From: an uncultured Candidatus Rokubacteria bacterium
GTDB lineage: Bacteria > Methylomirabilota > Methylomirabilia > Rokubacteriales > CSP1-6
Length of the DNA: 64,000 nucleotides
Assembly: GCA_963789955.1 (NCBI GenBank)
Contig: CAWBMV010000003.1
Coordinates: 126,011-190,010 of the forward strand
Reading direction: 5' to 3'
The translations under genes were made by a program, and so were the position numbers. This document shows positions 1,081 through 35,147 of the stretch, one piece after another. Within the stretch, counting starts at the first letter, position 1. The number at the start of each line of letters is the position of its first letter. The notes beneath the pieces are model-generated. The model did not search any database. It was not told the DNA's origin and was given only the letters and a program-made list of their open reading frames with translations.

Positions 1081-1156
1081 GACCGAATCGGTCGGTGTAG
1101 TGAAGCGGGGTTGCCGGCCAGTAGGGAGCACCCCCGATAGGACGGAGACACGGGCT

Positions 1157-9595: not shown

Positions 9596-10834
9596 GTGAC
9601 CCAGCGGAGCTTGTCCGGCGGCGATCTGTTCGACAAGTTGCGGGCCCTCGCAGTGCGCCGAGCGGAATTCGGGACCGAGGCCGCCTGCCCCGGTGACACC
9701 ACCATCGACGAGGTGCTGAGCGCCTCAGAGGTCGTCATTCGCGGACGGCGCACGCTGATGCTCGGCTCGAACAACTACCTCGGTCTGACGTTTCACCCGG
9801 ATGTGCGTGCGGCGGCGCGTGATGCCGTGGATCGTTACGGCATCGGCACCACGGGATCGCGCGCCGCCAACGGGACGCTGGCGATCCATACGGCTCTCGA
9901 GCGGGACCTCGCGGGCCACTTTGGCAAGCGCCACGCCATCATCTTCACGACCGGCTACCAGGCGAACCTTTCCGTCATCGCCGGGGTCTGCCAAGCCGGG
10001 AACGTCCTGCTCGTGGACGCTGACAGCCACGCGAGCATCTTCGATGGGGCTCGGCTCTCGGGCGCGACGACGATCGTCTTCCGGCACAACGCCCCCGAGG
10101 ATCTCGCGCGAAAGCTGGCACGATTACCGAGCGGGAAGCGAGACCGTCTGGTCGTGGTCGAGGGCGTGTACTCCGTCCGAGGCGACGTCGCCCCGCTCAA
10201 GGACATCGTCGCGGTCTGCCGCGAGAATGGCGCCTATTTGCTGGTGGACGAAGCGCACTCGTTCGGCGCCTACGGTGCACGTGGTCTGGGCGTGGCGGAG
10301 TCCGAGGGTGTTCTCGACGACGTCGACTTCGTCGTCGGGACATTTTCGAAGGCACTCGGCGGCATCGGCGGCTTCTGCGTCTCCGATCGGTCGGAGCTCG
10401 AGAGCCTCCGTTTCCTGGCGCGGAGTTACGTCTTCACCGCATCAGGTTCGGCGGCGATGATCGAGGGTGTTCGAGCGGCGCTCCGGGTGATCGCGCACGA
10501 CCCGTCGCTGCGCGAGCGTCTCTGGGCGAACACGAGACGGTTGCGGGCGGGGCTCCAGGCCCTCGGCTGCACCGTCGGGCAGATCGAGTCGCCGATCGTC
10601 TCGATCCCGGTCGGCAACGAGGTGGCCGCGATCACGCTGTGGCAGCGTCTCCTCGACGCGGGCATCTATGTGAACATCATGCTGCCCCCGGCTTGTCCCC
10701 CCGATGCATGTCTGCTCCGCGCGAGCTGCTCGGCGGCGCACACCGCCGGGGAGATCGATCACGCGGCGGCCGTGATCTCACGAGTCGTGCGCGAGGCCGA
10801 CGTCAAGCACGCGGCCGGCACCGAGAGCGACTAG
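9596..10834 (+). CDS. spt: Serine palmitoyltransferase-like alpha-oxoamine synthase (PLP)
   Basis: LGSNNYLGLTFHPDV, GTTGSRAANGT, TTGYQANL, DSHASI, DEAHS, GTFSK (PLP Lys) and YVFTAS. ACP+FAAL context matches bacterial SPT loci rather than bioF or kbl. Confidence 0.8.
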   Translation: MTQRSLSGGDLFDKLRALAVRRAEFGTEAACPGDTTIDEVLSASEVVIRGRRTLMLGSNNYLGLTFHPDVRAAARDAVDRYGIGTTGSRAANGTLAIHTALERDLAGHFGKRHAIIFTTGYQANLSVIAGVCQAGNVLLVDADSHASIFDGARLSGATTIVFRHNAPEDLARKLARLPSGKRDRLVVVEGVYSVRGDVAPLKDIVAVCRENGAYLLVDEAHSFGAYGARGLGVAESEGVLDDVDFVVGTFSKALGGIGGFCVSDRSELESLRFLARSYVFTASGSAAMIEGVRAALRVIAHDPSLRERLWANTRRLRAGLQALGCTVGQIESPIVSIPVGNEVAAITLWQRLLDAGIYVNIMLPPACPPDACLLRASCSAAHTAGEIDHAAAVISRVVREADVKHAAGTESD

Positions 10835-12352: not shown

Positions 12353-14638
12353 ATGTTCCGCATTCTCGATCGCTACGTGTATCGCGAGATGCTCCCCGTT
12401 TTCGCCCTCGCCACCGGTCTATTCACGTTCCTCCACGTGATGGACCGACTGAACGATTTCAGCAACATGGCCGCGAATGGCGCACCGCTTCACCTCGTGC
12501 TCCGGGTCTGGGGACTGCTGCTGGTGTCCTTCATGAGTCACACGCTCCCGATGGGCCTACTCCTGGCGGTCGTGATTACGGCCGGCCGCCTGACGTCCGA
12601 CCTCGAAGTCGTGGGGTTCGGCGCCTTGGGAGTCAGCCCGCTCCGCCTGTTCCGTCCGTTCCTGGTCGCCTCGATCGTGGTGGCCATGATGGTTGGAGCC
12701 CTGACGATGTGGATCAACCCATGGGGTTCCTCCGCCTTCTTCCGGTATCTGCGGGACCTCCGCCAGCATGCCGCCTTTCCTCTGATCCAGGAACGCACCT
12801 TCACCCGGGTCGGCGATGTCGTCATCTACGTTGACCGGAAGGATCTATCGACCTCGGCCCTCTCGGGCCTGGTCATCGGTGACGAGCGCGACCCCAGCAC
12901 GTTCGGGATCATCACGGCGCCGGTCGGGCGTCTGATCGACGACGCCGAACGTCGGAGGACGATCCTCAGGCTGACCGACGGCGCCGTCCACGAGTCGCGG
13001 CCGGCGTCACCCAATTGGTACCGCGTGACGGCGTTCAAGGTCTACGACATGCCCCTCGACGTGACTGCCCCGATCGCCGAGGCTCAGAAAGAACTCGGAG
13101 CCGAGCGGAACGAGACGACGTGGGATCTCATGGAGAATACTCGCGCGCTGGATTTCACGCGAAAGGCCGAGCACGCGGAGATGTTCGTCGTCGAATTCCA
13201 CAAGCGACTGGCCCTCCCGCTGGCCCCCATCGTCTTCGCCATGGTCGTCTTTCCCCTGGGCATCCGGCTTCAGCGCGGTGGGCGAGCCGTGGCGGCCGTG
13301 AGCGGCATCATGGTCTACCTGGTCCATCACGTCGTGCAGGAGGGTCTCGGTCGCGTCGCGGTGCTTCGTCCATGGGGCGGTGGACATTGGCTGCCGATCG
13401 CTCTGTTCGCGCTGCTCGGCGTCGTGCTCCTTTATTTCACAGCCCATCCGGCGCCGCCTGCCTGGCGACGTGGCGTGAGTCGTCTCCTCGAGCTCCTTCC
13501 GGCTCGCCTGTTGCCGTTTCGCCGCCTGCCGACTGGCCTGCGGCGTGACCGCACCCGGCGGCTTCGCCGGCAGAGCTCGATCATCGATCGGTACGTCGCG
13601 CGACAGTTCCTCATCTACGTCGGCTATGGATTGGGCCTGGCCACCGCCATCTTCGTCGTCGTCGATCTCGTGGAGACCTTGAGTCGCTACCGGCCACCGT
13701 TGCAAGCCATTCTCGAACACTTCGGCTATCGCCTTCCCGCGGCGCTGCACCAGTCACTGCCCATCATCGTGCTCGTGGCCACCGTCTTCCTCTTCATGGA
13801 GCTCCAGAGATACAACGAGCTCACGGCGCTAAAGGCGTTGGGCCTGAGCCTTCACCGGGTCAGCCTGCCCGTTCTCGTCCTGGCGGGAGCGGTGAGCGTC
13901 GCGGCGTTCGTCTTCCAGGAGACGGCGGCGCCGGTCCTGAATGCCAAGGCCGACGAGCTCGACCGCGTGGAGATCCGCAAGGTCGCGGCTCGGGGGAGCG
14001 CTCCCAAATACCATTGGTACCGCCGTTCCGACACCGAGTTCGTCCGCATCGGCCGGCTCGATCGCGCTCTGCGCCAAGTGCAGGGCGTCACGCTCGTTCA
14101 GACCGATGCGGCCTTCCGACTGGTCAAGCGGCTCGACGCGACCCACGCAGTCTGGGCTCCGGACGGCCTGGAGTTCGGGCAGAGCGTGCTGCGGGAGTTC
14201 GGCCCCGACAAGACGATGCGCACCACGTGGCAGGACGAGAAGCCGCGCCGTCTTGCCGACTCCCTCGAGGCACTCGGCGCGATGCCCGCGCCCTCGGCGA
14301 TGACGTTCATGGAGCTGCGCGCCTACGTCCGCCACCTGCGCGAGAGGGGGCAGGCGGTCGGTACTCAGGTGCTGCGTCTGCACTCCAAGCTCTCGTTCCC
14401 CTTGATGAGCCTCGTGCTCGCCTTCCTGGCCATCTCGTTTACAGCGCGATGGCAGCGTGGCGGGCGCTTCGTCGGTGCGGCTCTCGCCGTCGTGATCGTG
14501 ATCGCATACTCGATCGTCAACTCGGTCGCCCTCTCACTCGGCCGGGTCGACCTCTTGCCATCCGTCGTCGCCGCCTGGACGGCGACCATCGTGTTCGGCG
14601 GCATCGGAGTCGCGCTCTTCATCCGCGCGCCCACGTAG
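12353..14638 (+). CDS. lptFG: Fused LptF-LptG (YjgP/YjgQ) permease
   Basis: Two tandem permease halves in one 761-aa ORF: RILDRYVYRE...GRLTSDLEV...EFHKRLALP and IIDRYVARQF...RYNELTALKALGLS...LHSKLSFP. Confidence 0.92.
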   Translation: MFRILDRYVYREMLPVFALATGLFTFLHVMDRLNDFSNMAANGAPLHLVLRVWGLLLVSFMSHTLPMGLLLAVVITAGRLTSDLEVVGFGALGVSPLRLFRPFLVASIVVAMMVGALTMWINPWGSSAFFRYLRDLRQHAAFPLIQERTFTRVGDVVIYVDRKDLSTSALSGLVIGDERDPSTFGIITAPVGRLIDDAERRRTILRLTDGAVHESRPASPNWYRVTAFKVYDMPLDVTAPIAEAQKELGAERNETTWDLMENTRALDFTRKAEHAEMFVVEFHKRLALPLAPIVFAMVVFPLGIRLQRGGRAVAAVSGIMVYLVHHVVQEGLGRVAVLRPWGGGHWLPIALFALLGVVLLYFTAHPAPPAWRRGVSRLLELLPARLLPFRRLPTGLRRDRTRRLRRQSSIIDRYVARQFLIYVGYGLGLATAIFVVVDLVETLSRYRPPLQAILEHFGYRLPAALHQSLPIIVLVATVFLFMELQRYNELTALKALGLSLHRVSLPVLVLAGAVSVAAFVFQETAAPVLNAKADELDRVEIRKVAARGSAPKYHWYRRSDTEFVRIGRLDRALRQVQGVTLVQTDAAFRLVKRLDATHAVWAPDGLEFGQSVLREFGPDKTMRTTWQDEKPRRLADSLEALGAMPAPSAMTFMELRAYVRHLRERGQAVGTQVLRLHSKLSFPLMSLVLAFLAISFTARWQRGGRFVGAALAVVIVIAYSIVNSVALSLGRVDLLPSVVAAWTATIVFGGIGVALFIRAPT

Positions 14639-14655
14639 AACTGACCGGGGCGCCT

Positions 14656-16230
14656 TCAGCGCTCCTCGTGGTAGTCCGTCTCGGTGTTGACCGCCCAGAT
14701 GGCATCCTTGGCGGTGATCCCGGCGACCAGGTTGTCGACGGCGACCATGGCCGCGAGCATCGAGTGGTCCTGGTTGTTGTAGCGGTGCATACCGTTCCGG
14801 CCGAGCAGGAAGAGGTTCTCGAAGCGATCCGCCCAGCCGCGCAGGAGATCGAAGCGATCGTACGTGCCGAAGTAGGCGGGGTAGGCGCGCGGGGCGCGTA
14901 CGACCACGCCGTCGAGGACGTCATCGGCGCCGATGTCGGCGATGCTCTGCCAGCTCGCGCGCCGCGAGTTCGAGGATCTCGGCGTCCGACCGGCTCCACA
15001 GCGTATCGCCGACCGAGCAGAAGTACTCGAGGCCCACCCAGACGGTGCGCGGATCGCGCACCATGTAGGGGCTCCAGTTGTTGAAGATCTGCAGTCGCCC
15101 GACCCGAACGTCGGGCTCCTGAATGTAGATCCAGTTGTCCGTCAAATGCTCCTTCACCGCCGAGCCCGAGGCGGCGCAGGAGCAGCCCCACGGTGATGAA
15201 GTCCCGATAGGCAAGCCCTTCCGCCACGTCGCGCACGGCGTCCGGCGCGGCCGGGCGGAGGGCGCGGACGAGGTCCACGACCGGCATGGTCGAGAACACG
15301 TAGTCGGCCGCGAGCATCGACGCGCGAGCCGGTCGCGAACGTCCTCGACGACGGCCGCGGTCACCCGCTCGCCCTCGGTCTCGAGGCCGACCACGCGGGA
15401 GTGCATGTGGATCTCGCCCTTGCGAGCCATGATCTCGCCGGCGACGGTCTCCCACAGTGAGCCGGGCCCGAGCTTCGGGTAAAGGAAGCGCTCGATGAGG
15501 GAGGTCTCTTGCCCTTTCTGAGCGAGATCACCGCGTCCTGCCGCGCACCTGACGTCGAAGCGAGTGCACGCAGGGCGCGTGCGATCGACAGCCCCTTGAC
15601 GCGCTGGGCGCCCCACTCCGCGGTGATCTCCGCACACGAGCGACCCCAGACTTTTTCTGTGTAGGCGCGAAAGAACGTCCGGTACAGCTCGTCGCCGAAG
15701 CGGTTGATGAAGAAATCTTCCAGGGTGACTTCTGGGCGCCGGGGGCGAAGCACTCGATGCCCGTAGGTGGCCCCGATCCGCAGCACGCGGGCGAGCCCGA
15801 GCTTCGACAACGTGTCGAGGCTCAATTGAAGCGGGTAGTCGTAGACCTTCCGGCCGAACAGGATGCGTGACCGGCGCGAGCGTACGAGCATGACGCGGTC
15901 TTCGCGCTCGGGGTCGGGTCCGGACGGGAGGCCTTCGAGATCACGCGCCTGGCCCTGGTACGCCAGCACGAAGCGGTCCGGCGCGGCCGCCTCGATGGGC
16001 AGGAAGCTGAGCCACCAGCGCATGACCCGATCGGACTTCGAGAAGAAGCGATGGCCCCCCAGGTCCATGCGGTTGCCGGCGTGCACGATCGTGCGCGCCA
16101 GGCCGCCGATCTCCCCCGAGCCCTCGACGACGATTGGCCGGATCCTCGTCCGCTCGAGCAGCTCGTATGCCGCTGTGAGGCCGGCGGGCCCAGCGCCGAT
16201 GACGACTGCCGTGCCGCTCCTATACGCCAT
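14656..16230 (-). CDS. FAD-dependent oxidoreductase (HemY/UDP-galactopyranose mutase-like), several frameshifts
   Basis: [50 protein letters not shown] and [15 protein letters not shown] are spread over at least four frames. Confidence 0.85.
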
Positions 16231-22819: not shown

Positions 22820-24547
22820 ATGAGGGCGCAGCTTCGCGCGCTGTTCGGCATGGTGCTCGAGCAGCGGTGGCTCGTCGCGGTCGGCGGCGTGTTCGTGGCG
22901 GTCGGTCTCGTCGCGGCGCTGTCCTATCCGGTTCTCGTGAGGCGTTTGATCGACGAAGGCATTCTGGCCGGGCAGCGGTCGCGGGTCAACGAGCTCGCGC
23001 TGCTGCTTCTCGTGCTGCTGGTGGCGGAGGGCGTCGCCACCGTCGTCCGCGACCACTACTTCAATCTCGCGGCCGAGCGTGTGACCACACGGCTCCGCCA
23101 GCGCGTGTTCGACCACCTCTTGAGTCAGGAGATCGCCTTCTTCGACAGCCGCAACGTCGGCGAGCTGACGACCCGCTTGTCGGACGACGTCGCAGTGATC
23201 AACCGTGTCGTCGGCGACCGGCTGGCCGACGCGGTGCGGTCCGTACTGGTGGGAGTGCTCGGAACGGTGCTGCTCATCTACACGTCGCCGATACTCACGC
23301 TGCTTCTCATGCTCGCGGTGCCGCCGATCGCCGTGGTGGCATGGGTGCTCGGAGGGCGTGTGAAGACTCTCTCCGCCGACACGCAGCAGGCGTACGCCGA
23401 TGCCGGCATCATCGTCGAAGAGTCGCTCACGGGTATCCGCACCGTGCGTGCGTTCTCGCAGGAGACCTCTCTGGGCCTTCGCTACAGAGACAAGCTCCAG
23501 GCGGGTGTCGAGCTCGCTCGGCGGCGGATCCTCGCGAACTCCACGCGGAGCGGCGTGTCATTCCTGGCCGGCGAAGGCGCGGCGCTGTTCGGCCTGTGGG
23601 CCGGCGCCAACCTCATCATCGAGAACCGTCTCACCTCCGGCGCAGTGATCTCATTCGTCCTGTATGGACTCCAGATCGCCCGTGGCCTCCGGAGTGCGTC
23701 GGATTTCTGGGGCGAGGCCGTGCGCGGGCTCGGCGCGACGCAGTGGATCTTCGAGCTGCTCGCGCGTGAGCCCCAGCTGCCGGTCGACGGCGGCGTCCAG
23801 CCCGCGCGCGTGGAGGGTGCCGTTACGCTCGACCGTGTGCACTTTCGGTATCCGGCCCGGCCGGACGTCGAGGCCCTGGCGGGCGTCGATCTCAGCATCC
23901 GGCCCGGCGAGGTCGTGGCGCTGGTCGGACGCTCGGGAGCCGGCAAGTCGACCATCCTGAACCTGCTGCTCCGCTTCTATGATCCGGATGAGGGCCGGAT
24001 CCTGGTCGATGGGCACGATATACGAACCCTCGACGCGACGTGGCTGCGGTCCCAGATCGGTGTGGTCATGCAAGAGCCGATGCTGTTCTCGGGAACCATC
24101 GCCGACAACATCCGGTATGGACTCGTCACACGAAGCGACAGCGAGGTGGCCGCGGCGGCCGAGCTGGCCAACGCCCGAGAGTTCATCGAGCGTTTCCCCG
24201 CCGGATTCGCGACCACGATCGGCACGCGAGGTGTCCAGCTATCGGGTGGCCAGCGGCAGCGTCTGGCGATCGCGCGGGGAGTACTGCGCCGACCGAGGAT
24301 CCTCGTCCTCGACGAGGCGACGAACGCGCTCGATTCGGAAAGCGAGGCCTTCGTGCACAAGGCGCTGCAGGCGCTCGACTACCGCCCGACGACGTTGATC
24401 ATCGCCCACCGACTCTCGACGGTGATCAACGTCGATCGCGTCGTCGTTCTCGATCGCGGACGGATCGTTGAAACCGGCCGCCACGACGAGCTGCTCAAGA
24501 CCTCGACGGTCTACCGCCAGCTCGTCGAAACGCAGCTCGGTGTCTGA
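22820..24547 (+). CDS. Type IV ABC exporter, fused TMD+NBD (MsbA-like)
   Basis: TM domain plus GRSGAGKST, LSGGQRQR, LVLDEAT and IIAHRLST. Confidence 0.95.
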   Translation: MRAQLRALFGMVLEQRWLVAVGGVFVAVGLVAALSYPVLVRRLIDEGILAGQRSRVNELALLLLVLLVAEGVATVVRDHYFNLAAERVTTRLRQRVFDHLLSQEIAFFDSRNVGELTTRLSDDVAVINRVVGDRLADAVRSVLVGVLGTVLLIYTSPILTLLLMLAVPPIAVVAWVLGGRVKTLSADTQQAYADAGIIVEESLTGIRTVRAFSQETSLGLRYRDKLQAGVELARRRILANSTRSGVSFLAGEGAALFGLWAGANLIIENRLTSGAVISFVLYGLQIARGLRSASDFWGEAVRGLGATQWIFELLAREPQLPVDGGVQPARVEGAVTLDRVHFRYPARPDVEALAGVDLSIRPGEVVALVGRSGAGKSTILNLLLRFYDPDEGRILVDGHDIRTLDATWLRSQIGVVMQEPMLFSGTIADNIRYGLVTRSDSEVAAAAELANAREFIERFPAGFATTIGTRGVQLSGGQRQRLAIARGVLRRPRILVLDEATNALDSESEAFVHKALQALDYRPTTLIIAHRLSTVINVDRVVVLDRGRIVETGRHDELLKTSTVYRQLVETQLGV

Positions 24548-25515
24548 TGAGCTCGCAGGACAGCAAGGCCCAATGCGGCATCGGCTGGCAGGGCTGGTGG
24601 CGCGGAACTCCCGCCGACCGCTGGACGCTCGGTTACGCGCTGGCCGTCGCAGTCGTGCTCGTCTGCCGTGTTCCTGCCGCCTACCTGCCCGTCGTCTTCG
24701 TAGTCCACGGCCTCCTCGTCGCGCTTGCGCTTCTGATGCCTCGAGCTCGGCGGTCCGGACCGGTCGGGCGCTTCGTCGGCGATTGGTATCCGTTGCTCAT
24801 CTTGACGGCGCTCTACACTGAGATCGGGCTTGCCAACCTAGCCGACGGGCGGGCCTACGACCGGATCGTGCTGAGCTGGGAGCAAGCGCTGTTCGGCTTC
24901 CAACCTGCACGCGAGTGGATTCGCTCGAGCCCGTCAGTCTGGCTCTCCTGGGTCCTGCATCTCGGGTACCTGGCGTACTACGCCATCATTGTCGCGGCGC
25001 CGCTCGCTCTCTGGCTCACCCGACAGCGGGAGGCGATGCAGCGAGCCGTGACGACTATCACGGCCACCTTCTACCTCTGCTACGCGACGTACCTTGTCTT
25101 CCCCGTCGTCGGGCCCCGGCACGTGTTCCCGGCGGCGGACAACGCCGCGGCGCAGACCGCCATTGCGCAGTGGACGGCGCGGTTCCTCGAACACGTGTCT
25201 GCATGGGGCGCCGCGTTCCCGTCGAGCCACGTCGCGGTCGCCGTTGCCGCTACGGCCGTGGCACTTCTCGAGTGGCGGGTGCTCGGCCTCGCGCTCGTGG
25301 TCCCGACCACGCTGTTGACCCTCGGCAGCGTGTACGGGCAGTTCCACTACGCCGTCGACGCACTGGCGGGGATCGGCGTCGGGCTCGCGGTGGCGCTTGG
25401 TGCCTGGCTCGTGTCGCGAAAGGGCGCCACCGCGATAGAAGTGGCCCCGGGACTCGGCATGACGCGACAGCCGCCTATGCCTCCGGCCGATCGCCGGAAC
25501 AGTTTTCCGACGTGA
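24547..25515 (+). CDS. PAP2 superfamily protein, AUR1/IPC-synthase-like
   Basis: Multi-TM; FPVVGPR, AAFPSSHVA and GQFHYAVDALAG match the Aur1-type catalytic motifs. Translationally coupled to the ABC gene. Confidence 0.8.
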   Translation: MSSQDSKAQCGIGWQGWWRGTPADRWTLGYALAVAVVLVCRVPAAYLPVVFVVHGLLVALALLMPRARRSGPVGRFVGDWYPLLILTALYTEIGLANLADGRAYDRIVLSWEQALFGFQPAREWIRSSPSVWLSWVLHLGYLAYYAIIVAAPLALWLTRQREAMQRAVTTITATFYLCYATYLVFPVVGPRHVFPAADNAAAQTAIAQWTARFLEHVSAWGAAFPSSHVAVAVAATAVALLEWRVLGLALVVPTTLLTLGSVYGQFHYAVDALAGIGVGLAVALGAWLVSRKGATAIEVAPGLGMTRQPPMPPADRRNSFPT

Positions 25516-25557: not shown

Positions 25558-26286
25558 CTACGAGCGGAGCGTGCCGAACACGCGGTCCCAGAGCGGACTG
25601 GACACGCCGAACTGTATCTCCGGCGTGCGAAAGTGGTGCGTGAGGTGATGGTGACGGAGGTAGCGCGCGACACGACCCCGGAGCGAGCCGGCGTGGCAGG
25701 CGTAGTGGAGCAGGTCGTAGACCAGGTAGCCGAAGATCGCACCGGCGAAGACCGGCGCAGATGCCGTCCCGACCAGCAACCGCAGCACAAAGAACAGAAA
25801 GGCCGCCACCGGCACCGTGACGATCGGCGGCATGAGCCAGCGGCGCCGGTCTTCGGGGAACGCATGGTGGACACCGTGAATCAAGTACGCGAACAGGACG
25901 CCGAGCCGGCCGCGGGGCGTCAAGTGGAACACGAAGCGATGAAGCAGATACTCCATCGCTGTCCACAGCACGACCCCGCCACCGAAAAGGAGGGAAGATA
26001 CGAGAGGCGACCATCCCGCCACGACTCCCGCCCAGACGAAGTAGGCCGAGACCGGCAGATAGATCAAGACCAGCGTCCGAGGTCGCGTGCCCGTGAACCA
26101 CTCGAGGAATGGGTGATTGAACATCTGGGGCTGTCCAGGCCGCGGCGCTCCCCAGTCGTGCACACTGAGTGTCACGGGACCGACAAGGGTCATAGGGCCG
26201 GTTGGGAACCGACGGAAAGTGGACGACCACATCGCGCGTGCCGAGGCGTCCGGCGGCTGCAGAAGACTACCGCGCGCTTGATTCAC
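25558..26286 (-). CDS. Fatty acid hydroxylase (FA2H/Scs7-like)
   Basis: Four His boxes (EYLLHRFVFH, HGVHH, YDLLHYACH, HHLTHH) plus FGVSSPLWDRVFGT; true start probably further downstream. Confidence 0.88.
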   Translation of the reverse strand: MNQARGSLLQPPDASARAMWSSTFRRFPTGPMTLVGPVTLSVHDWGAPRPGQPQMFNHPFLEWFTGTRPRTLVLIYLPVSAYFVWAGVVAGWSPLVSSLLFGGGVVLWTAMEYLLHRFVFHLTPRGRLGVLFAYLIHGVHHAFPEDRRRWLMPPIVTVPVAAFLFFVLRLLVGTASAPVFAGAIFGYLVYDLLHYACHAGSLRGRVARYLRHHHLTHHFRTPEIQFGVSSPLWDRVFGTLRS

Positions 26287-26387: not shown

Positions 26388-27372
26388 GTGCGCGTGCTGG
26401 TGACCGGGGCGACCGGGCTCTTGGGCGCCAATGTTGTGCGGGCTCTCCTCGGGGCCGGCCATGCGGTGCGCGCAGCGGTCAGGGCTTCCTCGAGGCAACT
26501 CGCGCTCACGGACTTGCCCGTGGAGACATCGGTACTGACGCTGGAGGAGCCCGAATCGGTGGCAGCAGCGATGGCCGGGTGTCAGGCCGTTGTCCACGCG
26601 GCGGCGGCTAATTGGGTCGGCCGGAGCGGGCGAGCGTGGATGGAGCGGGTCAACGTGCAGGGCACCGAAGCGGTGTGCAGAGTCGCCTTGGAGACCGGTA
26701 TTCGCCGTATGGTCCACGTCTCATCGGTCGACACGCTCGGTATCCGCTCCCTCGAGCACCCCGCCGACGAGGAGTGCCGATCTGATCTGGCGCACCTGCG
26801 TTGCCCCTACATCGACACGAAGAGAGCCGCCGAGGACGTCGTCCTCGGTCACGTGGCGCTGGGACTCCCCGCCGTGATCGTCAACCCAACCTTTATGCTG
26901 GGCCCCTGGGACACCCGTCCTACTTCAGGTCGAATGCTCCTGGAGATCGCCAAGGGATGGGCGCTTCTCGCCCCGCGGGGCGGGAACTGCTTTCTGGACG
27001 TGCGCGACGCGGCGATCGGGGTCGTTGCTGCACTGGAAAGAGGGCGGGTGGGTCGGCGCTACATCTTGGGAGGCCAGAACCTCACATACCTCGACGCCTG
27101 GCGACGGATCGCCCCAATCGTCGGAGGGCGCGGGCCCCTCGGTACTGCCCCGTCCGCTGGCGCCTGGCTCCTCGGTCGTGCAGCCGGCTTCTGGGGGCGG
27201 CTCAGAGGTCAAGGAGCCCGTAGTCAATCCAGTCAGCGTGGCCATGGGCGAACTGCCGCATTACTTCAGCTCCGCTCGAGCCCGCGCCGAGCTGAACTTC
27301 CCCGAGAGCGACTTCGAGCGCGCCGTCTCGGACGCTTGGCGCTGGTTCCGAGAGCACGGCTATGCGCCCTGA
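26388..27372 (+). CDS. NAD-dependent epimerase/reductase (extended SDR, HpnA/DFR-like), frameshift near 27210
   Basis: VLVTGATGLLG, HVSS, YIDTK and VIVNP; the C-terminus (KEPVVNP...SSARARAEL...WRWFREHGY) is in another frame ending at 27372. Confidence 0.85.
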
Positions 27373-27424
27373 CAATGGTTTCCGCATTGCGCGGAGTGGC
27401 GCGAAGAGCCTAAGGCGCGTGTTT

Positions 27425-28138
27425 TCAGCGGTGCGCCAAGAGCCGACGGAATTCCGCGAGCTCGCGCGGCGGCACGTCCGACCGTTCGCGGAGCGCGGCG
27501 TCGACGCGGCCCGGGTCGTCGTCGATCGCGCGCGCGGTCTTCGCGATGTCGCCGACGATGCGCGTCGTCACCTTCATGGCTCGGGGCGCCACGACCGCGT
27601 GGAACAACCGGGCCAGCGCTTCGAACGCGGCGTTGTCGATCCGGACGAAGCTGGCCATCGCCGGCGTGATGAGGCTCTTGCCGTCTGCTTGCGGCTTGAT
27701 GGTGTAGTCGAGGAGCACCACGACGCGCCCGTGGATCGCGGGCAAAACCTGTGGTTGGTAGCGGCCCTGCAGATAGAAGATGCGGCTGCCTCGCGTCGCA
27801 TACGCGATCCGGAACCGCACCAGGGCTCCCGCGGTGTCGTCGAGCCAGAGCCCATCGGGCTCACGCCAGATCCGATAGCGACCGATCTCGAGTGCCCGGA
27901 TCACATGTGTCGCGAAGTCAGGGTGATCGAGCAGGTATTCGAACACGTCGTCCCGCACGAGAAAGGATTCGCCGTTCGACTGCGCAGTAACCGACGCGTT
28001 CTCGGTGACCTGCTCCAGGCGAGCTCGCTCCGGCTCCGGCAGATCCGGGGGCAGCGCCGCCGTGGGCCAGGTCGCGAGGGCGCTCCCCACGAAGATGAAG
28101 AGCAGGCCGACACCGGCGGCTCCGACTCTGATGGTCAT
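27425..28138 (-). CDS. Hypothetical exported protein
   Basis: Signal-peptide-like N-terminus from ATG 28138, coding-like composition, divergent from the GNAT gene; no family recognised. Confidence 0.7.
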   Translation of the reverse strand: MTIRVGAAGVGLLFIFVGSALATWPTAALPPDLPEPERARLEQVTENASVTAQSNGESFLVRDDVFEYLLDHPDFATHVIRALEIGRYRIWREPDGLWLDDTAGALVRFRIAYATRGSRIFYLQGRYQPQVLPAIHGRVVVLLDYTIKPQADGKSLITPAMASFVRIDNAAFEALARLFHAVVAPRAMKVTTRIVGDIAKTARAIDDDPGRVDAALRERSDVPPRELAEFRRLLAHR

Positions 28139-28197
28139 CGCAGCGCGTCCAGTATACGTCGCTGACTTGATTCGGTAGTACGAGCTACACTCGGCCA

Positions 28198-29325
28198 ATG
28201 GCGCCTCTCGAGATCATTCGCGCCGAGACCGGGAGTGCCTTTCGCGCGTTCATCGACCTCCCGTATCGCCTCTATCGAGACCACCCGCACTTCGTGCCTC
28301 CCCTGCGGCGGGAGCGCCGCGATCTCTTCGACAAGGCGCGGCACCCGTTCTTCCGCCATGCCGACGGCGCATTCTTCCTCGCCCGCCGCGGCGGCCAACC
28401 GGTCGGCCGCATCGAAGCCATCGTCAATCACGCGCACAATCAGTTCCATGACGATCGGGTCGGGTTCTTCGGCGCGTTTGAAAGCGAAAACGACCGGGCG
28501 GTGTCCGACGCCTTGCTCGAAAGCGCCGCTCGGTGGCTCGGTGAGCGGGGATTGCAAGTCATGCGGGGCCCCGTCACTCACTCCACCAACGAGGAGACGG
28601 GGCTGCTGATCGAGGGGTTCGAGGAGCCACCAATGATCGGGATGCCCTACAATCCGCCGTACTACGCCATGCTGGTCGAGGCCTTCGGCCTCACCAAGGC
28701 CAAGGACGTCTACGGCTGGGAGATCCGTGCGGAACAGACGATACCTGAGAAGATCCACCGCGTGGCCGACATCGTGCGGAAGAGCACGAACGTCGTCGTT
28801 CGCCGGGCGAACTTCGCAGACTACGCCGGCGAGATTCGGCGGGCTATGGGTGTCTACAATGCCTCCTGGACGCGCAACTGGGGGTTCGTCCCGCTCACCG
28901 AGGCCGAGTTCGTTCACGCCGCCGATCAACTACGACCCGTCCTCGAGCGCTTCCCGGAAGGGGTGTTGTTGGCTGAGGTAGCCGGACGAGCGGTCGGTTT
29001 CTGCCTGGCCGCGCTGGACGTCAATCAAGCGCTCCGACGAGTGCGGAATGGGCGGCTCTTTCCGTTCGGGTTCTGGCATCTCTATCGCGGACTCCGGCGC
29101 GTCGACCAGATTCGCGTGATGGCGCTCGGTATTCTTCCCGAGTTCCGGCATCGCGGCATCGATGCGGTCATTTACCTCGAGCTCTTGAGTCACGGCCAGC
29201 GCCTCGGCTATCGGCGCGCGGAGATCGGTTGGACACTCGAGGACAACCGTGCGATGAATCGAGCGATCCTCATGGGCGGCCGTCATCACAAGACGTACCG
29301 CCTCTACGAGGCGCCGCTACCCTGA
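28198..29325 (+). CDS. bcerS: Tandem GNAT N-acyltransferase, bacterial ceramide synthase-like
   Basis: FIDLPYRLY..HPHFVPPL, HPFF, VGRI, GFFGAFE, MRGP...STNEETGLLIEGF, MPYNPPYY, NWGFVP, LGILPEFR and WTLEDN match the bCerS/YghO-type family; SPT in the same locus. Confidence 0.78.
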   Translation: MAPLEIIRAETGSAFRAFIDLPYRLYRDHPHFVPPLRRERRDLFDKARHPFFRHADGAFFLARRGGQPVGRIEAIVNHAHNQFHDDRVGFFGAFESENDRAVSDALLESAARWLGERGLQVMRGPVTHSTNEETGLLIEGFEEPPMIGMPYNPPYYAMLVEAFGLTKAKDVYGWEIRAEQTIPEKIHRVADIVRKSTNVVVRRANFADYAGEIRRAMGVYNASWTRNWGFVPLTEAEFVHAADQLRPVLERFPEGVLLAEVAGRAVGFCLAALDVNQALRRVRNGRLFPFGFWHLYRGLRRVDQIRVMALGILPEFRHRGIDAVIYLELLSHGQRLGYRRAEIGWTLEDNRAMNRAILMGGRHHKTYRLYEAPLP

Positions 29326-29439
29326 TGTAAGCCGTTCTGCTTGACATCGTTCCCTGCCTGCCATTAACTCGGGCCTACGCTCTCTCCAGCCGAGCCTCAG
29401 CGCTCGCTGGCCACTACCATTGGGTACGAGGGACATCGA

Positions 29440-30213
29440 ATGGGATCCTGTCGCGGCCGTGTGGCCTTGGTCACCGGCAGCTCGCGTGGACTGGGTCGAG
29501 TCATTGCACGGAAGCTGAGCGAGGCCGGCGCTGACCTGATCATCAACTATCGTCAGGCCGGTGGCCGCTCGGAGGCCCAGGCTCGAGCCCTCGCCAAGGA
29601 GCTCGTGGAGGGCGGATCCCGCGCGGTGGCCATCCAAGCCGATATCGGCCAGAAGGACGCCGTCGCCGCCATGTTCCAGCAGATCGGCGCCGAGTTCGGA
29701 CGGCTGGACATCCTCGTGCTCAACGCGGCGCGCGCTCCCTTCAAGAAGGCCGGCGAGCTTCTCAAGCGCGACCTTCTCGAGCTCGTCGAGACCAACTACC
29801 TCGGAAATGTCTACTGCATGCAGCAGGCTCTGCCGCTGATGCAGGGCCGCCCGGGTCACGTCGTGTTCATCTCCAGTCTCGGCAGCCGCTTCGCGCTGCC
29901 GAACTACCCGCTTGGTAGCATGAAGGCGGCCATGGAAAGCCTCGTGAAACAGTGGGCGACCGAGCTCGGGGATCGTCAGATCACCGTGAACGGCGTCACG
30001 GTCGGCCTGCTCAAGACGGATTCGCTGATCGTGCTGCGTCAGTACTGGCCCGGTGTGGAACGGCTGCCGCCGTCTGCGTTCGTCGAGCTGGAGGACGTGG
30101 CCGGAGTCGTGCTGTTTCTCTGTACAGACGCCGCGCGGAGCATCAGGGGCCAGAACCTCGTTGTCGACAACGGACTTTCCAACGAGCTCTTGCACTCTGC
30201 GCACAGTTCCTGA
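29440..30213 (+). CDS. SDR, FabL-like enoyl-ACP reductase candidate
   Basis: TGSSRGLG, LDILVLNAA and ISSLGSRFALPNYPLGSMKAAMESL (widened Y..K spacing as in SDR enoyl reductases). Confidence 0.75.
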   Translation: MGSCRGRVALVTGSSRGLGRVIARKLSEAGADLIINYRQAGGRSEAQARALAKELVEGGSRAVAIQADIGQKDAVAAMFQQIGAEFGRLDILVLNAARAPFKKAGELLKRDLLELVETNYLGNVYCMQQALPLMQGRPGHVVFISSLGSRFALPNYPLGSMKAAMESLVKQWATELGDRQITVNGVTVGLLKTDSLIVLRQYWPGVERLPPSAFVELEDVAGVVLFLCTDAARSIRGQNLVVDNGLSNELLHSAHSS

Positions 30214-30255
30214 CATCAGCGATCGCCTCATTGAGAGGAGGTCCACGAGGGGAGA

Positions 30256-30831
30256 ATGCCCGAGCCATTGATCAGCCAGGCCACGATTTATCGAGCGGTG
30301 CAAACCGCCATCGGCGACGCGCTGCAGATCTCCGAAGACAAGGTGATGCCCGAGAGCTCGCTCATCAAAGACCTCGGAGTGGAGTCGCTGGATCTCATCG
30401 ACATCAACTTCCGCCTCGAGCAAGACTTCAACATCGTGATGCCGCGCAAGTACCTCCTGGACCACGTGGAGGAGCTCTTCGGGGAGGGGACGGCGATCGA
30501 CGAACAGGATCGACTCACCGGCGCGGCCGTGACGATCTGGAACGCGCGGCTCGGGTCGGCCGGATCGGCCGTGCACGCGGGCATGTCGATCGAAGCGGTA
30601 CCGGCTCTCGTCACTCCGCACACGCTGGTCATGGTCGTCGAGGAGATCTTGGCCACCTGTCCGGCCACGTGCCCTGCTTGCGGGAAGTCGGCCTGGACGG
30701 TCGCCGATGGACGCGCCATCACCTGCGGCCAGTGCGGTGCGCGCGCGCCGCTCTTGGCGGGTGACGATGTCATCCGTCAGTGGCTCGAGGACTTCCGGGC
30801 ACGCGGTGGGCTGACGAGCCACACGCCTTGA
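30256..30831 (+). CDS. Extended acyl carrier protein with C-terminal Cys-rich (zinc-ribbon-like) tail
   Basis: DLGVESLDLIDINFRLEQDF PPant motif; tail CPATCPACG...ITCGQCG; 191 aa. Confidence 0.85.
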   Translation: MPEPLISQATIYRAVQTAIGDALQISEDKVMPESSLIKDLGVESLDLIDINFRLEQDFNIVMPRKYLLDHVEELFGEGTAIDEQDRLTGAAVTIWNARLGSAGSAVHAGMSIEAVPALVTPHTLVMVVEEILATCPATCPACGKSAWTVADGRAITCGQCGARAPLLAGDDVIRQWLEDFRARGGLTSHTP

Positions 30832-32135
30832 CCAGCGCGTCACGCCAGACACGGGATCGGCGGCGCGTTGTCATCACCGGCGTGGGGATGATCACCCCCC
30901 TGGGACGGAACGTGGCCGAAACGTTCGAGCGGGCTAGCCGGGGCGTCTCGGGAATTGACTACATCCGTCGCTTCGACACCCGCGGTCTTCCCGTTCGAAT
31001 CGGCGGCGAGATTTCGGACGAGTGGATCGTGCGGCCGCGCGCGGAATCGGCGGCGGCGCTCGAGAGCATGGCCTCCAGGGCGATCCGATTCATGTGGACC
31101 GCGGGCATGGAGGCGGCCGAGCAGGCGAAGCTCGACCAGATAGGTGATCGCTATCGGGTCGGTGTCGTCCTCGGCCATCACGGAGAGACCGCCGGCCTCG
31201 ACGATCTCGTCCGGATCTTTCGGGCGTCGGCCGGCGATGGTCGGTGGGACCCGGCCCAGCTCCGCGAGGGCGGCTACGACGTGTTCGCATCGATACGCCG
31301 ACGGGTCGACGTCGGACCGTCGCTGGTCTCGCGGGTGTTCGATTGTCGCGGGCCCAGCATTGGCATCGCCTCGGCGTGCGCCGCCGGCGGCCAGGCGATC
31401 GGTGAGGCCTACCGGCTCATCAAGTCGAGGCGTCTGGATGCCGCGCTGGCTGGCGGGTGCGAGGCATCGCTCACGTACCTGGGACTCTCGGGCTTCATAC
31501 TCCTGAAGGCCCTCACCGAGCACTATCACGCTCCATCGACGGCGTCCCGACCGTTCGATCGCAAGCGAAGCGGCTTCGTGATCTCCGAGGGAGCGGGCGC
31601 GCTCGTCCTCGAAGAGCTCACGCACGCCCGGGACCGTGGCGCATCGATCCTGGGCGAGCTCCTGGGCTATGGAGACTCCACGGACGCGTACCGCATCACG
31701 GACATCCACCCGCAGGCCGAGGGCGCCGTGCTGGCGATGGTGCGCGCGATCGAGGACGCCGGGATCGCGCGCGACAAGGTGGACTATATCAACGCGCACG
31801 GGACCTCGACCGTGCAGAACGACGCGCTCGAGACCCTTGCCGTCAAGCGAGTCTTCGGCGAGCGAGCGGCCTCTGTCCCGCTCAGCTCGAACAAGTCGAT
31901 GCTCGGTCACACCATCGGTGCGGCCGGGGCCATCGAGGCCGGTCTCACGCTCGAGGGCATCCGTCAATCGCTGCTCCTCCCCACGATCAACTACAAGACA
32001 CCGGATCCGCGATGCGACCTGGACTACGTGCCAAACGAGTCGCGTCGTGTTGCCCACCGGACCGCCCTCAGCAACTCCTTCGGGTTCGGCGGGCACAACG
32101 CCTCGGTTTGCATCGGCGCGTACGACGACGGCTGA
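30828..32135 (+). CDS. fabF: Beta-ketoacyl-ACP synthase II (intact C-H-H triad)
   Basis: RRVVITGVG, SACAAG, YINAHGTST, KSMLGHTIGA and SNSFGFGG; TTG start overlaps the ACP stop. Confidence 0.93.
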   Translation: MTSASRQTRDRRRVVITGVGMITPLGRNVAETFERASRGVSGIDYIRRFDTRGLPVRIGGEISDEWIVRPRAESAAALESMASRAIRFMWTAGMEAAEQAKLDQIGDRYRVGVVLGHHGETAGLDDLVRIFRASAGDGRWDPAQLREGGYDVFASIRRRVDVGPSLVSRVFDCRGPSIGIASACAAGGQAIGEAYRLIKSRRLDAALAGGCEASLTYLGLSGFILLKALTEHYHAPSTASRPFDRKRSGFVISEGAGALVLEELTHARDRGASILGELLGYGDSTDAYRITDIHPQAEGAVLAMVRAIEDAGIARDKVDYINAHGTSTVQNDALETLAVKRVFGERAASVPLSSNKSMLGHTIGAAGAIEAGLTLEGIRQSLLLPTINYKTPDPRCDLDYVPNESRRVAHRTALSNSFGFGGHNASVCIGAYDDG

Positions 32136-32599
32136 TGCGCTTCCTCTTCATCGACCGGGTCACGAGTCTCGAGCGAGGGCGTCGCATCACGGGGATCAAG
32201 TCATTCAGCTCGTCCGAGCCGTTTCTGGAGTCGCACTTCACCAGAACAGCCCTCGTCCCGGGCGTGCTTCTCATCGAGTCGATGGCGCAGCTTCTTGGTT
32301 GGCTGGCCAGCTATTCGTACGATTTCCGCTGCGTGGCCGTTCTGGCCCTCATCTCGGACGTGACGGTTCCGGCGGCCCTGAAGCCCGGAGCCCGCGTGGA
32401 GATCGAAGGCCGACTACTGTCCAGCACCGAGCGAGACTCGCTCGGTGCTGCCACGGCCACGGTTGATGGCCGGACGATCGCCCGGGTGGAGCGACTCATT
32501 TTGCACCACGTTCCACTTCCCAAAGGGGAAACCGCGCGGGAGTTCTTCCTCTACTACGCCGGCATCGACGACTTGTCGTCTCTCGAGCGTCCCGCATGA
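32135..32599 (+). CDS. FabZ/FabA-like hot-dog dehydratase
   Basis: MRFLFIDRV and HF....VPGVLLIESMAQ; ATG overlaps the fabF stop (TGATG). Confidence 0.88.
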   Translation: MRFLFIDRVTSLERGRRITGIKSFSSSEPFLESHFTRTALVPGVLLIESMAQLLGWLASYSYDFRCVAVLALISDVTVPAALKPGARVEIEGRLLSSTERDSLGAATATVDGRTIARVERLILHHVPLPKGETAREFFLYYAGIDDLSSLERPA

Positions 32600-33349
32600 A
32601 GATCGATCTCAGCGGGCAGGTCGCATTGGTCACGGGCGGCGGTCGCGGCATTGGTGGAGCCTGCAGCGTGACCCTGGCGCGACTGGGGGCAACGGTCATC
32701 ATCAACTACCGGCGCTCCCGCGACTCCGCCGAACGGCTCGAGAAGGACATCGTCGGTGAGGGCGGCAGCGGGCGCGCGTACCAGGCCGACGTGGCGGACC
32801 CCGGAGCGGTCGACGCGATGTTCCAGTTCATCCGCCAGGAATATCGACGCCTCGACATCCTGGTGAACAACGCGGGGATCGTTCAGGACACCCTGCTGCT
32901 CTCCATGACGCTGCAGGACTGGACGTCGGTCCAATGCCACCAATCTGACCGGCGCCTTTCTCTGCACGCGCCACGCCGTGGAAATGATGTTGCGGCAAGG
33001 CGGGGGCAAGATCGTCAATATCGCTTCGGCGAGCGCGGACGTCGGTGGACGCGGGCAGACCAACTACGCGGCCTCGAAGGGCGGGCTCGTGGCATTCAGC
33101 CGGGCGGGCGCCGTCGAGCTGGCCCGCAAGGGGATTCGCATCAACGCCGTGCTGCCCGGTATCATCGAGACCGACATGAGCCTGCCAGTACGCCAGCGGG
33201 CCGCGAACAAGCTGCTCGAGCGCATTCCGGCCCGTCGATTCGGCCGCGTTGACGAGGTCGCCAACCTGGTTGCCTTCCTCGTCTCGGATGCCTCGGAGTA
33301 CATCGTCGGACAGGCGATCGCCGTCGATGGCGGTCTCAGCGCCTCCTGA
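32596..33349 (+). CDS. fabG: 3-oxoacyl-ACP reductase, frameshift near 32933
   Basis: TGGGRGIG and NNAGI in frame 1; GQTNYAASK, PGIIETDM and VDGG in frame 2. Confidence 0.9.
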
Positions 33350-33360
33350 CGCGTCGGCCC

Positions 33361-33849
33361 GTGCGCTATTACCTCGTAGATCGCATATCGGAGTGGGAGC
33401 TCAACACGCGCATCCGCGGCATCAAGAATGTCGCTATGACCGAAGACTTCCTCCAGTATCACTTTCCGCGAAGGCCGACGATGCCGGGGGTGCTCCTGCT
33501 GGAGTCGATGACCCAGCTTGCCGGCTGGCTGGAGGCGGTCAGCTCCGAGTTTACGCGCTGGTTCCTGCTCGAGCACGTCACGAGCTGTAAGTTTTACGAC
33601 CTCACAGGGCCTGGCGACCGGGTCGAGTTCGTCGTCGACGCCATGCAGCCCGCCGAGGCGTCTCGCCGCCGTTATCGCGGAACCGGCAGCGTCGAGGGTA
33701 AGCGGCGTGTCGTCGCCGAGTTCGACGGGCAGGTGATTCCGCTCCACGACATCGACACCCCGTCGAGCCAGCGCCAGCTCTTCGAAGTGCTCACGAACAG
33801 CGCTACTTTCTCGCTCAGTCCCAATCCAGGTGTCGCGGGCCCCCCGTGA
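33361..33849 (+). CDS. Second FabZ-like dehydratase
   Basis: YYLVDRI, GIKNV and HFPRRPTMPGVLLLESMTQ. Confidence 0.9.
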   Translation: MRYYLVDRISEWELNTRIRGIKNVAMTEDFLQYHFPRRPTMPGVLLLESMTQLAGWLEAVSSEFTRWFLLEHVTSCKFYDLTGPGDRVEFVVDAMQPAEASRRRYRGTGSVEGKRRVVAEFDGQVIPLHDIDTPSSQRQLFEVLTNSATFSLSPNPGVAGPP

Positions 33850-35147
33850 CCGACCGAGTTCCCGCGATCACCGGCATAGGGTTGATTTCATCCCTCGCCC
33901 CATCCCTCGAGCGTCACTGGCAACGGATTCTTCAGCTCGCGACCGGTATTCGGCAGGTCAGCGGCGAGGACGTACCCCGAGCCCTTCGTTACGCGGGCCG
34001 GGTGGACGACGACGGGCTGCCGCCGGACACACCCCCCGAGCTGCTGAAGCAGAGACGCCTCATCAGCACTGGCTCGAGGCTCGGGCTCCGGGCCGTCGCC
34101 GAGGCCGTGCACGGGTCGAGCGTGGACCTGCTGCAGATGCCACCGGCGCGAAAGGCACTCTATATTGGCGCCGCTGACTACAGTAAGGACGACTACCAGG
34201 ACTTCTACCAAGCCTTCCGCGAGGCCGGTGTCAGCCCGGATCGGGCCGTCGACGCCGAACACGTCAACAGGGCCACGCTCCACACCGTCGACCCGTTCTT
34301 CCTACTCGAAGGCCTCACCAACAATCTGGTGGCGTTCGTCTCCCGCCGCTATCAACTCCAGGGACCCAACACAACGCTCGCCAACCATTCACCCTGCGGT
34401 GCCCAGGCGCTCGACCTTGCTTGCCGGAGCCTGCTTCAGGAGGAGGCGGATGTCGCGATCGTCGTGGGCGTCTGCGTCTGGAGCCGGTTCGTGTCCTTGT
34501 TCGATCTTGACGCGTTGGGGCTACTGTCTCAGTGCCGAGACGGAGCAAGGTCCTTCAGACCGTTCGACCACCGCAGGGACGGGTTCATTGCAGGCGATGG
34601 TGCCGCCGCGCTCGTCCTGGAGCCACTAGGGCGGGCACGCGCGCGAGGGGCCCGCGTACTCGGGTGCATTCGGGGCCTAGCCAGCTTCACGGACGCGAGC
34701 GATACGCGAAACGTGGGTGTGTCCGTAGAGACAACGCGTCGAACGATCACTGCAGCGCTCGACGAAGCGGGCACTCGTCCAGAGGACATCGCCTTCGTCT
34801 CGCCTCACGGAAGCGGTACGCGAGACGGGGATCAGGTCGAGCTTGCCGCGATCGGCGAGCTCTCCGAGCGTACCCGCGCAACGATCCCGATCTCGGGGAT
34901 CAAGCCATATACCGGCCATATGGGAGCGGCGAGCGATCTCACCGAGATCGCGCTTGCACTCATCGCGCTGGAGAACGGGTTGGCGCCAGCGACGCTCAAC
35001 TTCGAGACTGCGGATGCCGAGTTCAAGGACGTGGATATCGTCGCGCAGCATCGGCGCGTCGCAGGACGACACGCTCTCTCGATGAGCCAGGGACTCGGAG
35101 GCCAGTCGATCGCGGTCGTCGTCTCCGCCGGGCCGGGCCCGGACTGA
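33846..35147 (+). CDS. Ketosynthase-fold protein lacking the canonical catalytic Cys
   Basis: AITGIG, RPFDHRRDG, SPHGSGT and KPYTGHMG; the active-site loop reads ANHSPCGAQA versus ASACAAGGQA in FabF. Confidence 0.85.
   Translation: MTDRVPAITGIGLISSLAPSLERHWQRILQLATGIRQVSGEDVPRALRYAGRVDDDGLPPDTPPELLKQRRLISTGSRLGLRAVAEAVHGSSVDLLQMPPARKALYIGAADYSKDDYQDFYQAFREAGVSPDRAVDAEHVNRATLHTVDPFFLLEGLTNNLVAFVSRRYQLQGPNTTLANHSPCGAQALDLACRSLLQEEADVAIVVGVCVWSRFVSLFDLDALGLLSQCRDGARSFRPFDHRRDGFIAGDGAAALVLEPLGRARARGARVLGCIRGLASFTDASDTRNVGVSVETTRRTITAALDEAGTRPEDIAFVSPHGSGTRDGDQVELAAIGELSERTRATIPISGIKPYTGHMGAASDLTEIALALIALENGLAPATLNFETADAEFKDVDIVAQHRRVAGRHALSMSQGLGGQSIAVVVSAGPGPD

Follow-up and report, generated by a model that had tools for sequence, protein, structure and literature searches.

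The window, by which we mean the whole 64,000-nucleotide stretch of Candidatus Rokubacteria DNA analysed here, codes for a 191-residue acyl carrier protein (ACP) that combines a long internal insertion with a conserved four-cysteine module resembling a zinc ribbon, and homologues of the same design are found next to type II ketosynthases in several phyla. ACPs are normally metal-free four-helix proteins of about 80 residues. We hypothesize that the enlarged protein serves an accessory type II elongation cassette as its dedicated carrier, with a structural zinc, a private surface and ceramide as the destination of its acyl chain, a reading that, taken as a whole, we consider evenly poised and whose parts are weighed separately below. 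The features concerned are collected in Table 1.

Table 1. Features of the ACP, its cassette and the neighboring genes (window positions)
Feature	Position	Strand	Basis
Enlarged ACP, 191 aa (P0001)	30256..30831	+	Uninterrupted ORF, Pfam, homologues, fold model, independent contigs
Ser44, predicted phosphopantetheine site (ESLD)	30385..30387	+	Invariant in 94/94 aligned sequences
Insertion of ~53 aa, residues 64-116 (helices 67-75, 89-103, 112-118), between ACP helices II and IV	30445..30603	+	Model, fold alignment; common to tail-less ~130-aa ACPs
ACP helix IV (residues 121-132), closes carrier bundle	30616..30651	+	Model; solved ACPs align over ~5-137
CxxC-x14-CxxC ribbon (C139, C142, C157, C160) and beta-hairpin, presumed Zn(Cys)4	30670..30735	+	Conservation, model, weak fold matches to eL43/L37ae
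Extra C-terminal helix (169-182) after conserved GD	30760..30801	+	Model; retained in ribbon-deleted P0137, P0168
FabL-like SDR, probable enoyl reductase	29440..30213	+	Upstream of ACP in 80/80 loci (best 80 of 190 GTDB)
Active ketosynthase, Cys-His-His	30828..32135	+	Family scan, active-site pattern
FabZ-like dehydratase 1	32135..32599	+	Family scans
FabG-like ketoreductase, frameshift at 32935/32936	32596..33349	+	Family scans; run contigs
FabZ-like dehydratase 2	33361..33849	+	Family scans
Ketosynthase homologue, Ser at catalytic Cys position (S-H-H), chain-length-factor-like	33846..35147	+	Family scan, active-site pattern
GNAT protein, bCerS-like by context, candidate acyl acceptor	28198..29325	+	Context and annotation label
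Serine palmitoyltransferase-like (Spt)	9596..10834	+	Best PDB match 2x8u SPT, E 5e-108
Small ACP	7652-7912		Precedes Spt
Acyl-AMP-ligase-like	7906-9585		Named from its motif and neighborhood
Fatty acid hydroxylase, candidate ceramide acyl hydroxylase	25558..26286	-	Family scans
PAP2_3	24547-25515		Family scan
HpnA-like epimerase/reductase, CerR candidate	26388-27413		Family scan

Integrity of the ACP reading frame

The ACP frame translates without internal stops, and its size, given in the initial annotation as about twice that of a normal ACP, is conserved at full length. Purine-rich stretches lie 5' of the ATG, including AGGAGG at 30236-30241. The TGA stop (30829-30831) overlaps the in-frame TTG of fabF at 30828, an overlap that had already been noticed, and the identical 4-bp ACP/KS overlap is present in two further loci, L001 and L002. 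An independently assembled contig from run X2 crosses 29400-30869 with 13 substitutions and no gaps, and a contig from run X1 crosses 30508-32880, likewise without gaps; X1 or X2 could each be the source sample, and it is the homologues that decide the integrity of the frame, namely 61 of full length in a first search, 61 more in a second search among the matches listed, and 190 matches in GTDB. A frameshift that fuses an ordinary ACP with some unrelated small ORF, raised at the outset as a reason for doubt, is rejected as a practically negligible prospect on the strength of these gap-free contigs and many full-length homologues, even if the nearby fabG does carry an assembly indel error; the ACP ORF is whole. 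GC3 in the tail is 0.81/0.76, compared with 0.84-0.89 in the core. Contigs of the RNA run X15 cover parts of the ORF, which is no proof of transcription, and a scan for promoters and terminators gave matches at chance level only.

Fold and motif anatomy

The Pfam PP-binding profile (PF00550) matches residues 14-68 (E 4.5e-6, 27.3 bits against a cut-off of 20.8), and the ESLD site of the initial annotation holds, with Ser44 conserved throughout the alignment. A sequence search of the PDB matched only residues ~7-78, and the ESM Atlas returned only PP-binding clusters of 200-216 aa, whose names are automatic. The AlphaFold2 model built on the family alignment (A2) displays a whole-chain pLDDT of 92.8 and a pTM of 0.88, with helices at residues 8-23, 44-58, 67-75, 89-103, 112-118, 121-132 and 169-182 and strands at 147-150 and 154-157. 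Alignment with solved ACPs extends over model residues ~5-137 (~80 residues, Z about 10, rmsd 1.5-2.7), and consequently helix 121-132 is taken as helix IV and residues 64-116 as the insert, which splits the ACP bundle and corresponds to the long internal insertion reported earlier. The match to 7auf (Z 10.1, rmsd 1.5, 79 residues aligned) includes the predicted bundle formed by helices I, II and IV, and AcpXL (2kw2) aligns with Z 9.3 and rmsd 3.3. In the fold search with the full model only ACPs were matched, covering residues 1-138.

The cysteines are found at positions 135, 139, 142, 157 and 160, in the arrangement C-x3-CxxC-x14-CxxC. The terminal C-x3-CxxC-x12-CxxC motif first described thus survives as a conserved, ribbon-like module of four cysteines, but the x12 spacing was a miscount and is rejected, the gap between C142 and C157 being 14 residues. 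C135 is a cysteine in just 13 of the 94 aligned sequences, and its candidacy as a fifth ligand is likewise rejected. Nor does the protein end in the motif, since the conserved helix 169-182 comes after it; structure prediction yields an ACP fold and the two CxxC pairs around a hairpin, but the model places the ribbon as an insert, flanked by helix IV and the extra C-terminal helix, and not as a free terminal tail. The model suggests that the tail is placed rigidly on the ACP, the packing being read from pTM only, and given the two confidence values the insert, ribbon and helix would constitute one rigid enlarged ACP.

Modelled alone, the tail piece reaches a pLDDT of 87.6, and fold searches with it returned no significant match to solved structures: the best Foldseek E was a non-significant 0.08, to eL43/L37ae chains, and the alignment to NudC 74-125 was weak (Z 2.9, rmsd 2.8, 50 residues aligned). 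Lar and Elf1 matches to the tail in Pfam/NCBIfam fell below cut-off. The C4 ribbons of eL43/L37ae and NudC are structural zinc sites and likewise have a beta-hairpin framed by two CxxC knuckles, weak as the fold matches are, whereas here the ribbon sits inside a carrier protein. The four cysteines quite likely bind zinc, and a single structural Zn2+ would be held in the loop that follows helix IV and leads into the extra helix.

Distribution and conservation of the family

The first homologue search identified 68 proteins among 314 candidates, 61 of them of 180-210 aa. Both parts of the protein, for which homologues had been proposed as a check, are retained in 49 of these 61, which carry CxxC-x12-16-CxxC; ten others keep the tail with one cysteine and two differ at single sites. 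A second search returned 881 proteins at E<=0.001, and its breakdown covers the 150 listed, 148 of them new: among these listed matches 59 are of full length with the Cys tail, two are of full length but irregular in Cys spacing, 22 consist of core and insert and are tail-less (three look truncated) and 65 are partial. Alignment A2 holds 94 sequences chosen for full length (34 from the first search, query included, and 60 from the second), so its conservation figures are conditional on that choice; all four cysteines are present in 85 of the 94, down to ~25% identity.

From the 190 GTDB matches the best 80 were taken as loci. The closest of them (55-78%) are from Rokuibacteriota/Methylomirabilota, the rest from Nitrospirota, Desulfobacterota, Nitrospinota, Binatia and a single Chloroflexota bin. 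The four-Cys pattern is found in 77 of 81 sequences (the best 80 of 190 and that of the window), and the remaining four show CxC as their first knuckle. Among the more remote named members are Pseudomonas, Nocardia brasiliensis and a Bryobacteraceae bin. The members of Nocardia brasiliensis/vulneris (P0082, P0234-P0247) have 216-219 aa and bear the ribbon, and a plasmid search with the Nocardia member gave no match. Among 40 relatives of this genome just five encode the full long ACP, which marks it as an accessory gene; these five overlap the Methylomirabilota loci of the GTDB set and do not count as independent. Elsewhere in the genome (contig C12) an ordinary AcpP-like gene is present as well, and this, together with the restricted occurrence in relatives, argues for a dedicated carrier.

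A quick unrooted tree was computed from 90 rows with the tail columns removed, omitting partial matches, P0153 and three truncated rows; 43 of its 87 branches are open. On it, 18 tail-less ACPs form one side (SH-aLRT 90) and Cys-degenerate members arise at two separate places. In P0137 and P0168 the ribbon is deleted and the C-terminal helix retained. Taken together, the two losses of cysteines and this deletion indicate that the ribbon is a strongly kept yet removable module. Tail-less insertion ACPs of ~130 aa (from the Streptomyces plasmid locus L101 and the P0162-P0215 group) have the core and insert in common with the window ACP and lie in similar KS/DH/KR clusters, but end after helix IV; accordingly the ribbon is not generally required in cassettes of this kind, and no characterisation of these shorter proteins was found in the literature searched. 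The plasmid cluster (L101:10952-24183) encodes a tail-less insertion ACP of 133 aa, matched in 13 records, along with FabD, KR, two DH, several KS, KSIII and an ester cyclase. The genome under study also has a second cassette (G000:C16:62631-67814, - strand) comprising a KS-like gene, FabG, ACP, FabZ-like, SDR and KS; its ACP (65193-65801) has 202 aa, lacks the Cys ribbon and carries an insert that is larger and of another kind, and similar matches occur in many relatives.

The putative elongation cassette

The gene order in the window is FabL-like SDR, ACP, KS, FabZ, FabG, FabZ and KS. The extra base at 32935/32936 in fabG is an assembly error, absent from the contigs of three of the four runs compared. 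In the best 80 of the 190 GTDB loci the SDR is found 80 times, KS1 77, KS7 43, KS10 37, KS11 36, FabG 35, LpxL-like genes 28 and AcpS 22; many of these loci end early, and the LpxL and AcpS labels derive from scans of representatives. The Cys-His-His triad is intact in KS1 (72/72) and KS10 (33/33), Ser replaces Cys in 32 of 33 KS11 proteins, that of the window included, and Cys is absent from the eight commonest KS7 patterns (30/36). Wherever the flank sufficed the family adjoins type II ketosynthases, typically as an active/inactive pair, and by its active-site residues the pair in the window matches the type II KS/CLF pattern, for which a heterodimer is predicted.

An LpxL-like gene is present in 28 of the 36 loci that reach KS11, and LpxL-ended cassettes are frequent in Nitrospirota and Desulfobacterota. 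In two genomes the cassette ends after KS1 and a FabG-FabZ-KS11-LpxL half is located elsewhere. Upstream of 15 loci lie what we take, from the sequence starts, to be lipid A genes. The end use of the cassette apparently varies across the family. In five loci (L045:17813-20275, L016, L022, L055 and L071) a ~360-aa protein without family matches and a condensation-domain protein (Pfam E 1.8e-9) stand after LpxL, or in L045 instead of it, as a possible further acyl acceptor. In L028, L031, L032 and L053 a FabK/nitronate-monooxygenase-like gene precedes the cassette, upstream of the SDR.

Relation to koreenceine-type clusters and AcpXL

The Pseudomonas ACP is 29% identical to the window ACP over 166 aa (E 2e-23), with insert, ribbon and C-terminal helix in common. 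With a Pseudomonas member as query 35 metagenome loci were retrieved, and all 30 ACP ORFs recovered (in 32 loci) have the four cysteines. In the 20 loci with at least 8.4 kb downstream the order is invariably ACP, KS, CLF-like, KS, CLF-like and a class III aminotransferase fusion of 956 aa, after which SDRs come in most cases. This order matches kecA-H, whose cluster yields C14 alkaloids according to the accessible part of PMC6498172, and the aminotransferase fusion is given as 959 aa in that of PMC10829540. The forward primer for PP_2777, the ACP of the P. putida koreenceine cluster, encodes Met-Asn, like the start of the Pseudomonas members (PMC12490732, methods as accessible). From synteny, Pfam content and this primer start we infer that the Pseudomonas members constitute the KecA/PP_2777 ACP family (Pseudomonas koreensis kecA-K; P. 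putida KT2440 PP_2777-2787), to which the window ACP belongs by the same design. The koreenceine cluster differs from the window in having two KS/CLF pairs and the KecF aminotransferase-reductase; the window cassette has one pair and no KecF-like gene, and instead two DHs, an ER-like SDR and a sphingolipid-island setting.

The initial annotation knew of no characterised ACP with a metal-binding appendage. This stands in that we found no paper describing such a module, but PP_2777 has been purified and assayed, its 'unusual predicted structure' was remarked upon, and DeepFRI assigned it 'cation binding' at 0.53 (PMC12490732, in part). The word 'zinc' and any description of the ribbon are absent from the accessible portions of that paper's text and supplements. 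Beyond this remark, no description of a zinc-ribbon ACP architecture, or of a conserved putative metal-binding ACP design of 185-220 aa across several phyla, was found in the literature searched, largely outside subscription journals.

The AcpXL system resembles the cassette here in having a specialised ACP with a private FabZ and FabF pair, and the order acpXL-fabZXL-fabF2XL-fabF1XL-adhA2XL-lpxXL, as given in the part of PMC11901934 at hand, is similar to that of the cassette. However, AcpXL has about 93-101 aa and no ribbon, SDR reductases here take the place of AdhA2XL, and the AcpXL clusters end in lpxXL, as many relatives' cassettes end in an LpxL-like acyltransferase and the window's does not; neither adhA2XL nor lpxXL was found at the window locus. 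Against the AcpXL model NF005079 (PRK06508) the window ACP scores 40.6 bits (E 2.5e-10) and fails the cut-off of 83, and in view of this score and its 191 aa filing it as AcpXL is rejected.

The sphingolipid island

The Spt of the window scores 365 bits to the SPT 2x8u and 204 to the best non-SPT. The GNAT gene, co-oriented with the cassette and 114 bp upstream of it, encodes a protein that shares 33% identity with E. coli YghO and 36-38% with proteins annotated 'dATP pyrophosphohydrolase', presumably an old label of bCerS; in a PDB search it gave no meaningful match. A homologue stands beside an Spt-like aminotransferase in all three annotated regions opened, two of which also carry acyl-AMP ligase, ACP and LptF/G, and positions 12353-14638 of the window encode what we take to be an LptF/G-like fusion. 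The window set thereby matches the aasR/acpR/spt/cerS set (PMC11324152, as far as accessible) of Rhodobacteria (Caulobacter CC_1165-1162, CC_1154), with counterparts for the ACP, ligase, Spt and LptF/G and with a CerS-like GNAT, and those loci, in the part of the description available, include neither a private elongation cassette nor a giant ACP. No description of Rokubacteria sphingolipids was found in the accessible portions of the literature searched.

In all four same-genus relatives with the long ACP the GNAT gene lies directly upstream of the cassette and Spt is present. Since this adjacency is confined to one genus it may reflect a single inherited event, and five relatives have a bCerS-like GNAT (41-45%) without the long ACP, which indicates that sphingolipid synthesis is independent of the cassette. 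A complex prediction of ACP, GNAT and Zn (score 0.09, mark 0.32) is no evidence either way.

Several further observations concern this region. A 257-aa protein without Pfam match (27425-28198, - strand), which has a paralogue on C1, is encoded head-to-head with the bCerS-like gene in relatives. In one carrier (G011, L093:1881-2951) the island Spt is divergent, 44% against 80-83% in the three others, and lies on the opposite strand, which suggests replacement within the island. A Streptomyces plasmid (L098:13724-18250) has what resembles an actinomycete operon of sphingolipid type, with consecutive genes for an aminotransferase I/II, a bCerS-like GNAT (42%), an epimerase and a condensation-domain protein. 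An FAD-dependent oxidoreductase is split over several frames in the window (14619-16230, - strand), probably by further assembly indels as in fabG. At 1100-4270 (+ strand) a 1056-aa protein carries a subtilase-like motif followed by several near-identical repeats of ~110 aa.

Proposed role and alternatives

In the mechanism that we propose, the cassette would comprise the ER-like SDR, the ACP as dedicated carrier, an active KS, a first DH, the KR, a second DH and the inactive KS/CLF. Ser44 would be phosphopantetheinylated, so that the ACP would carry the growing acyl chain among the KS/CLF heterodimer, the KR, the two DHs and the ER. This carrier role draws on the invariance of Ser44, the ACP fold and, indirectly, the AcpS gene within the cassette in 22 of the best 80 of 190 loci, and the protein very probably occurs in holo form. 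The extra surface would keep the carrier private to the cassette enzymes and away from housekeeping fatty-acid synthesis (FAS), in accordance with the report that PP_2777 is inactive in a reconstituted E. coli FAS in which PP_1915 is active (PMC12490732, accessible part). The failure of PP_2777 could also reflect failed loading or folding, and its authors allow for wrong annotation as well. A structural or partner-selecting role of the tail is the reading towards which we lean, and of the three roles first suggested for it, docking or partner selection fits best, shielding being weakened by the C14 product and redox sensing by repeated loss of the cysteines or of the entire ribbon.

Chain shielding, in which insert and tail would widen a hydrophobic pocket for C24-C30 acyl groups, is unlikely. 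AcpXL, for which such cavity expansion was proposed (PMC9234698), is among the best matches in both sequence and fold, and the LpxL-like gene in most loci reaching the last KS recalls acpXL-lpxXL (PMC11901934, in part), but the same full design serves as ACP of koreenceine-type clusters with their C14 products (PMC6498172, in part) and AcpXL handles C20-30 chains at its small size and ribbon-free. This argument concerns the tail, and the product of the cassette here could still be a very long chain.

In the preferred reading, the finished and probably saturated long chain would be handed to the neighboring ceramide-synthase-like GNAT and end up as N-acyl chain in a sphingolipid. Ceramide as the destination in this lineage is an even call, argued from the GNAT and Spt in the four same-genus carriers and from the lack of a cassette-type LpxL. 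The main rival destination is lipid A, the chain being transferred by an unlinked LpxL (C1) and the sphingolipid neighborhood being incidental; in 28 of the best 80 of 190 loci the cassette closes with an LpxL-like gene, the two split cassettes have their LpxL-bearing second half elsewhere, a genome of the same order (G028) has LpxL directly after the inactive KS, and lipid A genes are present in this genome (C30). We nevertheless regard lipid A as improbable, because the GNAT gene is co-oriented just upstream of the cassette and no cassette-type LpxL was found in this genome or its same-genus carriers (G000, G006, G008, G009, G011; 66-96% complete): the best LpxL match is 32% in this genome and 32-33% in the four carriers, with none in one, compared with 56-66% for cassette LpxLs.

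A redox or metal switch, the four cysteines gating chain synthesis by a disulfide, Zn release or rubredoxin-like Fe, is very unlikely: conservation of the cysteines in most aligned sequences and the groundwater or sediment origin of many hosts (record titles) would suit it, but three cysteines or the whole ribbon were lost independently, no redox partner is among the gene families recurring in the best 80 of 190 loci, and the weak fold matches are to structural zinc sites. The repeated losses accordingly point to a probably structural zinc and speak against a catalytic or sensing role.

If the proposed role is true, the ribbon ACP would represent an extra means of separating an accessory acyl pathway from housekeeping fatty-acid synthesis. 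The design offers an explanation for the failure of PP_2777 in the E. coli FAS, and a host amenable to experiment (P. putida KT2440 or P. koreensis), with a product read-out, takes the place of uncultured bacteria in addressing the question. More speculatively, and with less confidence than for any part of the mechanism above, the zinc-ribbon ACPs could form a cross-phylum class, a portable, FAS-orthogonal module with KS/CLF that feeds no fewer than three outputs unrelated to one another (acylation of lipid A, an alkaloid antibiotic and very-long-chain ceramides in soil Rokubacteria), its metal-held tail being a docking element that selects partners and that could then be swapped to re-route acyl chains. 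For this abundant uncultured soil lineage the proposed role predicts unusual sphingolipids, and the ceramide route of Rokubacteria would, if true, parallel in bacteria the elongase-fed ceramide synthesis of eukaryotes.
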